Notes: generated by a model from the sequence alone, not told the origin. A stretch of DNA of 64,000 nt from Eledone cirrhosa (GCA_964016885.1 OZ024760.1:124001-188000); one strand, 5' to 3'; positions 1 through 64,000 are shown, counted from the stretch's first letter. A program made the numbers and translations.

Positions 1-173
1 CAATGCAGGGGATATTATTGTCTCTCTCTCATATATATATATATATATATATATGTCTGATGGCCCTGTAAGCACACAGGCAAAACCTCAGAGTAATAGG
101 ACACTGACTAGGCCTTAGAAAATATTATTAATCTCTATTATGGTATTGAGTACACATTAAGTCAATACTAAAC

Positions 174-1600
174 ATGTGTGTGTGTGTATATATATATATA
201 TGCGTGTGTGTGTGTGTATATATATATGTGTGTATATATATATATATATGTGTGTCCGTATATGTGTGTGTGTATATATGTGTGTGTGTGTGTGTATATA
301 TGTGTGTGTGTATATATGTGTATGTGTGTATATATATATATATATATATATATGTGTGTGTGTGTGTATGCGTGTGTGTGTATATATGTGTATGTGTGTG
401 TATATATATATATGTGTGTGTGTGTATATGCGTGTGTGTGTGTGTGTGTATATGTGTATGTGTGTATATATATATATATGTGTGTGTGTGTGTATATGCG
501 TGTGTGTGTGTATATATATATATAAAGTTTTTTTTGTTTTTACTCTCTTGTTTAGAGATGGTTGTTGTGAAAGTAGAAGTGATGGCAGTGGCTGAACTTG
601 TTGTTGTGTTTGTTGTTTGGTGCCAGGTTAAACTTGATGGAACAGGTGATCAAAGACATTCCAATGATGAGTATCTGGTTTTTCTAAGGGTATCCGGGAA
701 CATTTTCCTTGTTTTGAAAACAGTAGAAGGAATAAGGAAGTCGTTTGAAGGAGATTGCCTACTATTTTTAGCAGGCTTCTTTCTCCTTTGTTGGCTATGG
801 CTTGTAGGAGTGAACAGGAATAATTGTTAATCGCTGGTGATGGTTGCCATTGTTAAGTTTACTTTGTTTGTTTTTTGACTGGGTTGGCATGGGTGGGTTG
901 AGATGAAGGCTTAATGCAAATGTTAGCCAATTACACACCAAGAAGAAGGTGAAGGCTACACAATACATAGATTAATAAGCAATAATGCATGTATTTGTGT
1001 ATGTATATATACTCTTGTTTATACATATATACATATATATATGTGTGTATATGTATGTATCTATCAATATATATATATATATATATATGCACATGTGTGT
1101 GTGTATATGTATCTATCAATATATATATACATACATATATATATATATATATATACATATATTGATGCACATATATTTGTATATATATATATGTATCTAT
1201 CTATTAATATATATATATATATGGATATATGGATGTGTATATATATATATATATATATATATGTTATGCATGTATGTGTGTGTGTATGCATGAACAATTC
1301 GGTAAGTTTATAATCCTCACTAACATATATCCAGGTGCTATTGCTATACAACAACAACAACGGCCACAGCAACAACATTAACAGCAATAATGCTGATGAA
1401 TTTAAATGAAAATCTCTGAAAGAAACAAAGAATTTAAGCTGTTTATAATTGTACTCTGTATGTGTGCATGTATAAATCTGTGTGTGCATGTGTGTATATA
1501 TATGGATCTGTGTATGTGTGTTTGCATGTGTCTATATTTATGGATATCTGAGAATGTGTGTGTGTGTGTATGTGTGTGTGTGTGTGTGTGTGTGTGTGTA
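174..1600. repeat. (TA)n/(TG)n compound microsatellites (174-525, ~985-1290, ~1455-1600)
   Basis: Direct reading; these generate the YI/CV-repeat pseudo-ORFs. Confidence 0.95.
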
Positions 1601-1702
1601 CTGTGGGGGTGGATTAGAATTATGCATCGGTGTGTATGATGAGATTGTGTCTCGTTCTCTCTTCTCTTTGTGCACACAATTAGAGCGGTAATGTTGCTCA
1701 CT

Positions 1703-3954
1703 GTGGTGGTGGTAGCGGTGGTGGTGGCGGTGGTGGTGGTGGTGGTGGTGGTGGTGGTGGTGGTGGTGATGGTGGTGGTGGTGGTGGCGGTGGTGGTGGT
1801 GGTTGTGGTGGTGGTGGTGATGGTGGTGGTGGTGGCGGTGGTGGTGGTGGTGGTGGCAGTGGTGGTGGTGGTGGTGGTGGTAGCGGTGGTGGTGGTGGTG
1901 GTGGTGGTGGTGGTGGTGGTGGTGGTGGTGGTGGTGGTGGTGATGGTGGTGGTGGTGGTGGCGGTGGTGGTGGTGGTGGTGGTGGTGGTGATGGTGGTGG
2001 TGGTGGCGGTGGCGGTGGTGGTGGTGGTGGTGGTGGCAGTGGTGGTGGTGGTGGTGGTGGTGATGGTGGTGGTGGTAGCGGTGGTGGTGGTGGTGGTGGT
2101 GGTGGTGATGGTGGTGGTGGTGGTGGTGGTGGCGGTGGTGGTGGTGGTGGTGGCGGTGGTGGTGGTGGTGGTGGTGGTGGCGGTGGCGGTGGTGGCGGTG
2201 GTGGTGGTGGTGGTGGTGATGGTGGTGGTGGTGGCGGTGGTGGTGGTGGTGGTGGCGGTGGTGGTGGTGGTGGTGGTGGTGGTGGTGGTGGTGGTGATGG
2301 TGGTGGTGGTGGCGGTGGTGGTGGTGGTGGTGGCGGTGGCGGTGGTGGTGGCGGTGGCGGTGGCGGTGGTGGTGGTGGTGATGGTGGTGGAGGTGGCGGT
2401 GGTGGTGGTGGTGGCGGTGGCGGTGGTGGTGGTGGTGGTGATGATGGTTGTGGTGGTGGTGGTGGTGGTGGTGGTGGTGGTGGTGGTGGTGGTGTTGGTG
2501 GTGGTAACAGTGATGATGATGATGGTGTTGGTGATGATGGTTGTGGTGGTGGTGGTGGTGGTGGTGGTGGTGGTGGTGGTGGTGGTGGTAACAGCGATGA
2601 TGATGATGGTGTTGGTGATGATGGTAATGGTGATGATGGTTGTGGTGGTGGTGATGGTGGTGATGGTGGTGGTGGTGGTGGTGGTGGTGGAGACTGGTGG
2701 TGGTGGTAGTGGTGGTGGTGGAGACTGGTGGTAGTGGTGGTGGCAGTGGAGATTGGTGGTGGTGGTGGAGACTGGTGGTGGAGACTGATGGTGGTGGTAG
2801 TGGTGGTGGCAGTGGAGACTGGTGGTGGTGGAGACTGATGGTGGTGGTAGTGGTGGTGGTAGTGGTGGTGGTGGTGGTAGTGGAGACTGGTGGTGGTAGT
2901 GGAGACTGATGGTGGAGGTAGTGGTGGTAGTGGTGGTGGTAGTGGAGACTGGTGGTGGAGACTGGTGGTGGAGACTGGTGGTGGTGGTGGAGACTGATGG
3001 TGGTGGTGGTGGTGGAGACTGAGACTGGTGGTAGTGGTGGTGGCAGTGGAGACTGGTGGTGGTGGTTGTGGTGGTGGTGGAGACTGATGATGGTGGTAGT
3101 GGTGGTGGTAGTGGAGACTAGTGGTGGTGGAGACTGATGGTGGTGGTGGTGGTGGTGGAGACTGATGGTGGTGGTTATGGTGGTGGTAGTGGTGGTGGTG
3201 GTGGTGGAGACTGGTGGTAGTGGTGGTGGTAGTGGTGGTGGTAGTGGTGGTGGTAGTGGAGACTGATAGTGGAGGTAGTGGTGGTGGTAGTGGTGGTAGT
3301 GGAGACTGATGGTGGTGGTAGTGGTGGTGGTAGTGGTGGTGGTGGTGGTGGTAATGTCGATGATGATTGTGTCAACAATGATGAAGATAATGATGATGAT
3401 GATGACAATAATGGTGACGATGGCATTGATGTGTATTGATGATGCTGATGACGATCATGAATTGACTGATTGCATTTGTTGTTGTCGTCGTCATTGTTGT
3501 TGTTGTTTCTGTTGTTACTGTTCTTGTTGTTGTTATTGCTGTTGTTGTTGTTGTCATTTCTGTTGTTGTTGTTGTTGTCATTGCTATTGTTATTGCTGTT
3601 GTTGTTGTTGTCATTGCTGTTGTTGTTGTCATTGCTATTGTTATTGCTGTTGTTGTTGTTGTCATTGCTGTTGTTGTCATTGCTGTTGTTATTGCAATAA
3701 GTACACATTTGTATGTGTGTGTGTGGCTACTGATATGTGTGAGTATGTGTGTCTACAGATATGTGTATGTATGTATGTATGTATGTTTGTATGTATGTAT
3801 GTATGTATGTATGTATGTATGTATGTATGCATTCATGTATGCATGCATGTATGTATGTATGTATGTATGCATGTATGTATGTATGTATGTATGTATGCAT
3901 GTATGTATATATGTATGCATGCATGTATGTATGTATGTATGTATGTATGCATGT
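1703..3954. repeat. (GGT)n array grading into GGAGACT-interrupted units, then (GTT)n and (ATGT)n tracts
   Basis: Direct reading; source of the poly-Val/Gly/Cys pseudo-ORFs. Confidence 0.95.
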
Positions 3955-62534: not shown

Positions 62535-63385
62535 CTAAAGGAATAAGGGTGGGGAGTTCAGGCCGGGGGGAGTGTGGGTCTGTAGGGTGAAGATGGTTCG
62601 TTGTTCGACCCTTAGGAGATTGGCGGGTGTTCCGTGGCATTGGAGTAGGCCACAGACTGTGAGGTGGTGTGCGGAATGTCCAGGGGCACCAAAGTGGCGG
62701 GCGATGGGGGAACTACCACCGAGACGAATATCCCGGAGGTGCTCAGTAAATCTGTCCGCCAGGCGACGTCCAGTCTGTCCGACGTAAGTCGCGCTGCACT
62801 CCGTGCAGCGAAGTCCGTAGACTAGGTTGGAGGAGGCGCAGCGGAAGGCATGCCGGACAGAGAGAGAGTGGCCGTTGGGACCCTGGAAGGTGGTGGTGTT
62901 GGTGATGTGGGGACAGGTGTTGCAGCGGGGCCCAGAACAGGGAAAGGAACCGGGGGGGGGGAGCTGTGGACGAGGAGGGTGCGGAGATTGCGTGGGCGTT
63001 TGAAGGAGGGGAGTGGTGGGGCTGGGAAGATGTGGGAGGTGGAGGGGTCGGACTGGAGGCGTCGGAAGAAGCGGAGGATGGTGCGGTGGAGGGGTATGGT
63101 GGAGGGGTGGTAGGTGACGGGGAAGGGGAGACGGTGGGTGGGTGTGCGGTGGCGTGGGGTGAGGGTGGTGGAGCGGTGGACAGCACAGGCGCGGGTGAGA
63201 GCGGTGTGGACGAGAGAGGGGGTAACCTCTGCGGATGAAATGGCTGACTAGGGAAAGGGCCTGGGACTCAAAGTCAGCATCTCGGCTACAGAGGCAGCGG
63301 ATCCTGTGGAGTTGGGAGTAGGGAATAGAGTGTTTAGTGTGTGTGGGGTGGGAAGAGGTGAAGTCGAGGTAGGAGTGGGAGTCGG
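62535..63385 (-). pseudogene. PLE RT-thumb/GIY-YIG endonuclease C-terminal fragment
   Basis: YLDFTSSHP..K.SIPYSQ..RI, RGYP, C..PRCNTC, NLVYGLRC..C...YVGQTGR.L..RF.EH, GLN; the middle portion appears locally out of frame. Confidence 0.9.
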
Positions 63386-63893
63386 TATATATACACAGTT
63401 CAAGAGTAACCAATCTTAAAGAGAGAGATGGCGATAGGAGAGGAGATATGAGCGGAGAGATTGGTGAATTAGTTAGAAGCCAAAGCGTAAAGGCATGTGT
63501 TCAATGTGCAATATGCAGTAGAAAGCAGCTAGGTGGCTGGGTTCATGCAGAAGTTAGGTGCGCAGAGCTGAAAATATTCAATAGTTAAGCAAAACAAGAC
63601 CACACATTTCACAAGTAAGACATTATGCACCAACCAATATATGGAACATTATATTATGTAACATTATCTCATTATAAGGGCGGTAGATTGGCAGTATCGG
63701 TAGAGGGTCGGACGCCATGCTTTGACGCATAGAGTTACGGCCCTTGCTATTCTGAGTTCAAATCCCGCCGAGGTTAACTTTGCCTTTCATCCTTATGAGG
63801 TCGATAAAATAAAGTACCAGTAATGTACTGGGTAATTGCTGGCCTTGTGCCAAAGGTAGAAACAATTATTTTAATTTATATTCCTTTGAAGTT

Positions 63894-64000
63894 CCGATGA
63901 GCCGCTCTGTCTTTTAAATATATTAATTATTTTCAACTGAACCAGATCAATTATGATATATAGTCATCTGATCCAGAAACATTATATGGAGTAGCGAAAC
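63894..64000 (+). ncRNA. Variant hammerhead-like motif (CCGAUGA core, 95-nt stem II), cut by the window end
   Basis: CCGATGA-gccgctctgt...atggagtagc-GAAA-c. Confidence 0.45.

Follow-up and report, generated by a model that had tools for sequence, protein, structure and literature searches.

A tandemly repeated, protein-free element in the genome of Eledone cirrhosa carries a permuted hammerhead-like motif, located at position 31,068 of the 64,000-nucleotide (nt) stretch analysed here (GCA_964016885.1 OZ024760.1:124001-188000, designated G000:C21:124,001-188,000 in a 3.0-Gb assembly; hereafter, the window). This motif leads to a well-supported, high-copy candidate hammerhead architecture that we did not find described. 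The permuted structure is almost certainly under selection, judging by the compensatory changes between families of natural copies.

Architecture and conservation of the permuted motif

Positions of sites are given as C3 of the hammerhead core. At 31,068 (+), no GAAA lies in register downstream of CUGANGA, for which reason type-I and type-II readings were rejected. A GAAA precedes this core by 27 nt, with a UH site a further 16 nt away in the same direction. The strands run in the order a (3′ strand), hairpin b, stem II 5′ strand, interaction helix P1, stem III strand, UH, stem I strand, 3-4 nt, stem II 3′ strand, GAAA, stem III strand, P1, stem I strand, CUGANGA and a (5′ strand) (Table 1). 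In all 8 clusters, the stem II 3′ strand pairs better with its upstream partner (3.8-5.0 of 5 pairs) than with the strand after CUGANGA (2.0-3.1 of 5), a comparison that led us to reject a plain type-SGC arrangement (blocks S, G and C in this order) with stem II directly after CUGANGA. The canonical G10.1-C11.1 pair is present in register in families F5, F6 and F7, and the junction of F5 and F7 contains no unpaired bases.

Eight natural family representatives form 239 of the 248 predicted pairs, with compensatory changes in all six helices. When strands were swapped between families, only the identity among 40,320 permutations reached 239, with figures for individual helices from 2 to 1,032 of 40,320; these p-values are optimistic, as optimisation was used to set the registers of P1, a, b and II and the families C1-C3 are relatives of one another. 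When 12 natural copies were aligned independently with MAFFT, 88.7% of cells were paired and 22 of the 31 pairs differed on both sides, compared with 32-49% of cells paired in slid registers. None of 500 shuffles reached this alignment on four of five measures, and all but one fell below it on the fifth; the F6 row and part of F7 are misaligned and were left in for this test.

Since the swap and shuffle controls ignore relatedness, the same parser was run on unrelated matches. A score of at least 28 was obtained, among the matches listed, for none of 117 viral and one of 117 metagenome matches (at least 118 and at least 119 pattern matches, respectively). This score was also reached by one of 196 copies with shuffled upstream sequence; the window copy has 32.1. 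The metagenome parse, at 28.0, looked like coding sequence. Across 60 unselected loci, 67 of 83 candidates score at least 28, which is the unselected figure, the family clustering having taken only the 98 parses at or above this score. The two spacers of these 67 copies measure 16 nt and 23-24 nt (67/67 in each case), and all 67 have U16.1 and a non-G at position 17, which is partly enforced by the score. C3, G5, A6, G8, A9, G12, A13, A14, A15.1-U16.1 and the non-G at 17 are kept while the stems turn over. The CUGANGA and GAAA core letters belonged to the search pattern; U16.1, position 17 and the stems did not.

The tandem element and its families

The C1 unit has a period of 527 nt and a pyrimidine content of 69%, and its longest ATG frame is 58 amino acids (aa). 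Unit dimers occur at three loci (L088, L090 and L091), and one array on C15 contains 11 motif matches. The element thus has the non-coding tandem units, with one hammerhead-like motif each, that characterise retrozymes. Among the elements at the named sites, it is the only protein-free tandem repeat. Its motif is permuted, not minimal type-I, and would escape the relaxed type-I descriptor proposed in the initial annotation.

A sister family found by chance in L010 shows compensatory changes, from which the pattern search was started. The main pattern has 19,585 matches in the genome and none in the control, and the F5/F6 pattern 826 and none; 40 arbitrary 10-kilobase (kb) stretches contain five full copies, in four of the stretches. 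Patterns excluding common letters (278 matches vs 28 in the control, and 86 vs 4) exposed further families, C4 and F7 among them. A cluster of matches at L251, L255 and L274 lies inside a coding frame and was dropped. An older permuted family with a longer stem I, F8, was also seen (L273:1420-1560 and further pattern matches; one locus parsed). Contigs of unrecorded kind (three runs, one sample) contain a 527-nt head-to-tail joint; DNA tandems give the same joint, and these contigs were not used for or against expression.

The last copies are followed by (TA)4+ in 56 of 64 cases, compared with 1,018 of 4,000 random windows (25%). Copies are often 5′-truncated with scattered 5′ ends, and some are inverted; (TA)n lies at the 3′ side, and the 3′ ends cluster ~20-25 and 60-75 nt past C3. 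Unit sequence is present on both strands in 7 of the 60 unselected loci, and tandem motifs in 8. In one case, a C2 unit and the start of the second open reading frame (ORF2) of a young Penelope-like element (PLE) are fused with no (TA)n between them, and an inverted C2 end lies upstream (L175:2139-3039, L394:700-3412), possibly by template switching. This very young 4.2-kb PLE family (L417-L421, L394; C4, C9, C1, C2) forms tandem and inverted arrays. A 476-aa frame overlaps its 775-aa reverse transcriptase (RT)/GIY-YIG frame, more than 60 copies are identical over the 274 aa searched, and its minimal hammerhead has U.U at the base of stem II. It was rejected as a carrier of the permuted motif, since its 4.2-kb tandem units carry the minimal type-I hammerhead.

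Two known systems resemble the element. Type-SGC hammerheads (HRIMA-1; PMC10085705) share the S-G-C order, the crossing of stems I, II and III, the conserved core, the 3-nt linker between stems I and II, and a helix by which the distal ends of these two stems are joined. In vitro, ribozymes of this type that possess an interaction helix and a 3-nt linker have cleavage rates of 0.007-0.19 per minute (PMC10085705). At 31,068 we found the same block order, the core with an NUH site, and covariation in stems I and III and in the interaction helix. However, block C is interrupted here: the 10.x strand lies upstream of the cleavage site and is joined via helices a and b, instead of following CUGANGA. 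The assumption of an uninterrupted block C in PMC10085705 is therefore broken, and the motif is predicted to work like type-SGC hammerheads without being filed as a member. Animal non-LTR (long terminal repeat) retrozymes (PMC7229834; 10.64898/2026.07.22.740005) are likewise short protein-free units in head-to-tail copies with one hammerhead each, a GC content below 45% and co-occurring PLEs. Known retrozymes, however, have type-I hammerheads, absent at 31,068, and measure 150-450 base pairs (bp), whereas the units here are ~450-790 nt, pyrimidine-rich, (TA)n-flanked and often 5′-truncated or inverted. Cleavage has been shown for type-SGC hammerheads and circular RNA for known retrozymes.

Hammerhead sites and other features of the window

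All CUGANGA cores of the window, which is rich in (TA)n and other simple repeats and looks cephalopod-like in its repeats, were listed, and each named site was read on both strands. The initial annotation had put the number of hammerhead motifs at about ten. Of the 12 sites named, 11 belong to hammerhead-bearing families and represent 10 insertions; the other, 12,660-12,750 (-), has no G8 and was rejected as a hammerhead, being the antisense of a repeat end that bears a decayed one. The count was somewhat inflated, and the finding as then framed is mostly known PLE biology.

A strict type-I descriptor has two matches in the window (35,883 and 1,393), compared with a mean of 0.03 in 60 local dinucleotide shuffles, none of which reached two. 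The match at 1,393 (+), in AT-rich sequence and not previously named, is probably due to chance. As only 35,883 among the 12 named sites passes this descriptor (two sites if a 2-bp stem I is allowed), ten islands were searched genome-wide, and the remaining sites rest on family comparison. The relaxed type-I descriptor failed on 31,328, 63,894 and 52,647, owing to its stem thresholds. Rfam gave no hammerhead among the 150 listed of 198 window matches, and nothing at gathering score in 7 loci. The islands had been described as unique, but all ten that were searched (the 12,660 island was left out) are dispersed repeats; their first-look genome candidates, which are not copy numbers, amount to 91, 2163, 1066, 2601, 2800, 450, 823, 1620, 1917 and 2306. 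Sites near (TA)n predominate, with 10 of 12 sites, not all of them independent, lying within 200 nt of (TA)5+, compared with 29% of 5,000 random window positions.

Most window sites are 3′ ends of repeats that lie beside (TA)n and carry type-I hammerheads; these repeats are truncated Penelope-like retrotransposons, demonstrably so in four families and probably so in the others. Longer copies from the families of 31,328, 36,164, 63,894 and 61,040, and from that of the relic at 12,515, extend upstream as far as GIY-YIG coding sequence. The five sites (four families) joined to a Penelope-like RT/GIY-YIG frame therefore belong to truncated retrotransposons, whose 3′ ends they form in (TA)n; such an arrangement is known. 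No linked frame was found in the loci examined for 25,782 (0/19 copies), 35,883 (0/17), 55,122 (0/3) and 57 (0/2). The earlier view of the islands as self-cleaving mini-retroelements holds insofar as they are ribozyme-bearing retroelement pieces tied to (TA)n and PLEs, but most are PLE 3′ ends and not separate elements. Published work already covers hammerheads at PLE ends, their occurrence as single copies in truncated elements, and the targeting of (TA)n. PLE hammerheads have a short or palindromic stem III and an extra base after A9, and are mostly single copies from truncated elements (PMC4209133). Hydra-clade PLEs, for which an octopus family is listed, have a C-terminal GIY-YIG without CCHH, a CxCX5C linker, (TA)n targets and hammerheads (PMC8557442). 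The minimal type-I hammerheads of PLE pseudo-LTRs (PMC4209133) account for the sites at 35,883, 47,868/52,647, 55,122, 61,040, 25,782, 36,164 and 57.

A single insertion (47,681-52,745) has an intact type-I motif at each end, 47,868 (-) marking the inverted end and 52,647 (+) the direct one. This insertion and the families of 31,328, 36,164 and 63,894 have the C-terminal GIY-YIG and CxCX5C linker of the Hydra clade and lack CCHH (frames read by eye); they are inserted in (TA)n and their copies are 5′-truncated. The RT fragment of the window gave nothing significant in pairwise and PDB searches and was not recognised by Pfam. A perfect hairpin of ~110 nt is present in the 3′ untranslated region (UTR) of the Hydra-type insertion, in both inverted arms (48,690-48,800 and 51,720-51,830). 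The frame at 63,500-62,535 has a CX4CxxC linker before its C-terminal GIY-YIG (Pfam PF01541, E 0.0063, below the Pfam cut-off); because this type of linker (CX2-5CxxC) is common to both clades, the element at 60,925-63,500 is graded as Neptune or Nematis only. Minimal type-I motifs are found at 35,883 and 47,868/52,647. Stems are weak at 25,782 (+), where the core is intact and private mismatches occur in stem I and stem II (one each), and at 61,040 (-), where the core is intact and stem I has 2 bp only. The cores of 31,328, 63,894 and 36,164 are variants, position 4 being A and the base of stem II a U.U in the 36,164 (-) family, and those of 57 and 55,122 are broken. Copies of the 57 (+) family are 73-86% identical to the window copy and have a hammerhead-like layout.

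The remaining sites are ordinary PLE ends, with the exception of a long-arm variant with C at position 4 (C4). The site named as 31,218 (-) is a real motif of this kind, extending from 31,328 to 31,226 with 81 nt between the core halves. The 31,328 and 63,894 families both have C4, a palindromic stem III, 81 or 95 nt between the core halves, and a 3-bp stem I that differs in sequence between the families with pairing kept. A genome pattern for this form has 1,919 matches, compared with 2 in the control. RNAalifold predicts the long stem II arm from 10 copies, with 10 of 23 pairs changed on both sides. Several families with the C4 core (31,328 (-), 63,894 (+), L452-L481) have conserved internal words in the arm and often a 10.1-11.1 mismatch. 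U4C lowers activity in vitro, yet is kept in a viroid (PMC3088659). We did not find the C4 core with an 81-95 nt arm in the available text on minimal PLE hammerheads (PMC4209133), nor in that of PMC8557442, where the hammerheads of Hydra PLEs are called canonical. Two inverted 3′ halves of the 31,328 family form a perfect 140-nt palindrome at 30,170-30,309, which explains the top, microRNA-like Rfam match (below gathering score). A long tail extension of this family, at 30,429-30,525, is present only at some copy ends.

Other features include a broken non-LTR retrotransposon at 13,615-16,689 (+), with endonuclease, RT and PHD-like domains and two in-frame stops. Long G-rich tandem arrays at 38,416-41,202, 1,703-3,352, 4,590-5,863 and 41,435-42,104 (30-, 3-, 24- and 22-nt units) account for a strong G/T strand skew. 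Another (TA)n-flanked repeat of ~450 nt occurs in three copies, 92-96% alike (4,186-4,646, 28,328-28,772 and 36,396-36,856).

Table 1. Coordinates of the tandem element, the parts of its permuted motif and the other hammerhead-related repeats of the window.
Feature	Position	Strand	Remarks
Pyrimidine-rich tandem element, family C1	30593..31141	+	one 527-nt unit and terminal repeat; (TA)n-flanked
Permuted hammerhead-like motif, whole	30978..31079	+	cleavage site, GAAA, CUGANGA; split stem II
Helix a, upstream strand	30978..30981	+	partner 31,076-31,079 directly after CUGANGA; 31/32 pairs in 8 families, 4/40,320 permutations
Hairpin b, side arm of four-way junction	30982..31003	+	45/48 pairs
Stem II 5′ strand (10.x), upstream of cleavage site	31004..31009	+	partner 31,035-31,039; 31/32 pairs; C.U at 10.1-11.1 in C1
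Interaction helix P1, 5′ strand	31010..31015	+	partner 31,055-31,060; 46/48 pairs, 2/40,320 permutations
Block S: stem III strand, U16.1-C17, stem I strand	31019..31031	+	predicted cut after 31,024
Block G: stem II 3′ strand, GAAA, stem III strand	31035..31048	+	G12 at 31,041
Stem I strand and CUGACGA core	31061..31074	+	C3 at 31,068
Old repeat end, broken hammerhead core	55..175	+	window copy A9>G, G12 lost
3′ end of another PLE family	12510..12750	+	decayed hammerhead ~12,515-12,560 (+)
Repeat end with type-I motif	25738..25845	+	C3 25,782; partner frame not found
Hydra-type PLE 3′ end, type-I hammerhead, C4 core	31173..31350	-	motif 31,328-31,226; 81-nt stem II arm, palindromic stem III
Short repeat end, intact type-I hammerhead	35790..35990	-	motif 35,889-35,827; C3 35,883; flanks common with 52,647 family
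Hydra-type PLE 3′ end	36030..36195	-	type-I motif, C3 36,164, A at position 4; frame upstream in copy L100
Single 5′-truncated Hydra-type PLE insertion	47681..52745	+	inverted end, frame-broken RT/GIY-YIG ~49,300-50,990, 3′ end
Decayed copy of minimal type-I family	55012..55200	-	C3 55,122; G12>A
5′-truncated Neptune/Nematis-type PLE	60925..63500	-	GIY-YIG frame 63,500-62,535, 3′ UTR, minimal hammerhead 61,040
Second Hydra-type PLE 3′ end	63870..64000	+	C3 63,894; C4 core, 95-nt stem II arm; completed beyond window

Proposed fold, alternatives and significance

In the proposed fold, stems I, II and III would cross one another as in type-SGC hammerheads, with a linker of 3-4 nt from stem I to stem II, and P1 would tie the far ends of stems I and II. 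The strand after A9 would exit into helix a, and G10.1 would be supplied from upstream via a four-way junction of the core, a, b and stem II. The split would then sit where natural hammerheads tolerate an extra nucleotide. PLE hammerheads commonly carry their extra nucleotide at this site, which makes an insertion plausible; that of two helices is a prediction. Self-cleavage at the predicted site is probable. Read-through or tandem transcripts would be cut to unit length and perhaps circularised; an autonomous PLE would then supply, in trans, the RT and GIY-YIG nuclease that copy the unit RNA into (TA)n. Mobility of the units driven by PLEs is very likely; we infer it from the (TA)n at the 3′ side, the scattered 5′ ends, the inversions, and the one ORF2 fusion to a young PLE with many identical intact frames.

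Several observations weigh against this model, in addition to the optimism of the swap p-values. Stem III is the weakest helix (1,032/40,320 permutations), and the window copy has a private G>T (31,026) that makes its stem I weaker. The standard 10.1-11.1 pair is missing in abundant families, including C1 of the window (C.U, U.U, G.A and A.A; the mismatched families are C1, C2, C4 and C5), and cleavage would therefore slow; U10.1.U11.1 is tolerated in hammerheads (PMC3088659; PMC7229834). The minimum-energy fold of the window motif contains a, b, P1 and III only, as drawn by a program that cannot represent pseudoknots. Short linkers (3 and 6 nt in the window copy) connect both stem III strands with P1, which may strain a fold within a single unit; PMC10085705 flags the same geometric problem. 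None of 64 5′ ends lies 14-20 nt upstream of G12 (4 are nearer and 60 further). Most inserts run through the cut site, so their templates would have been uncut or re-ligated. The flanks of 237 matches contain no autonomous element with the permuted motif and no same-strand PLE frame upstream, the units align with eight PLE ends only in short low-complexity matches, and the C2 chimera is a single case. We found no tested precedent in the literature for a core that two helices interrupt between A9 and G10.1.

The same pairs could also be formed by two neighbouring units, one supplying the cleavage site and CUGANGA and the next the GAAA. This fold would be nested, in the conventional circular order (type-III-like), would retain the split stem II, and would cut only in multimers. 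Covariation is blind to which unit supplies a strand and fits it as well; moreover, tandem copies are common, the hammerheads of animal retrozymes and PLEs are often active as dimers (PMC4209133; PMC7229834), and the linker strain would be removed. We nevertheless consider it unlikely, because it places the 16-nt and 23-nt spacers in loops, yet both are fixed and match the SGC layout with its 3-nt linker. In addition, 52 of the 60 unselected loci lack a second same-strand motif, and the location of all parts within ~100 nt should favour local folding. The single-unit fold is somewhat preferred. The motif could instead descend from a hammerhead and now be a non-catalytic structure, such as a binding or priming signal for the PLE reverse transcriptase. 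The lack of a pile-up of 5′ ends at the cut site, the clustering of 3′ ends past C3 and the 10.1-11.1 mismatch of large families would suit such a role, and a lizard PLE did not require hammerhead cleavage to insert in vitro, no reads ending at the cut (PMC11167929). This is improbable, however, as all catalytic positions and the non-G at 17 are kept while the stems change.

A different question is whether the units are a separate kind of element at all, or 3′ ends or internal-deletion derivatives of an autonomous PLE carrying the permuted motif. Other window islands are such ends, the pseudo-LTRs of PLEs are reported as the source of animal retrozymes (10.64898/2026.07.22.740005), and some Naiad PLEs, one octopus family included, are listed with half a core, the other half lying further off 'on either side' (PMC8557442). 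However, besides the lack of an upstream frame in the 237 matches, no such frame is present among 30 F7 loci, and the single F5/F6 GIY-YIG frame (1 of 30 loci) lies downstream of the motif. Furthermore, full units recur head to tail, and the young autonomous family examined has a minimal type-I hammerhead. A PLE derivative is thus doubtful. As a whole, the window is best explained, with fair likelihood, by PLE ends together with a protein-free tandem repeat whose non-circular hammerhead would fold within ~100 nt and cut after 31,024. It is evenly balanced whether this genome harbours, in eight families or more, copies by the tens of thousands of a self-cleaving non-circular hammerhead in which a four-way junction separates A9 from G10.1. 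This would add a new architecture, the first of the non-circular kind from a eukaryotic genome, and mark a PLE-mobilised, retrozyme-like class invisible to standard descriptors and Rfam.

Non-circular hammerheads were described in 2023 from environmental sequence with no known host (PMC10085705). We found no report of one in a eukaryotic genome, of a core split by a four-way junction, or of a form with this scrambled order in any animal genome; supplements, subscription papers and Repbase or Dfam entries might hold such reports. The words 'hammerhead' and 'ribozyme' are absent from the main text of a 2026 octopus repeat annotation, as far as available (PMC13282606). Eight Naiad families, two of them from cephalopods, are listed as 'HHR_half_core' (PMC8557442, supplement S1) and may carry permuted motifs. 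PLE families listed with a half core are the first place to look for similar elements. Since retrozyme and PLE surveys use type-I descriptors, such elements would be missed in other animals.

If the proposed architecture is correct, a high-copy animal example would give non-circular hammerheads a genetic setting, and the related families would allow the origin of the rearrangement, left open in PMC10085705, to be traced. The split between A9 and G10.1 would also show that one of three blocks assumed to be indivisible can be interrupted.

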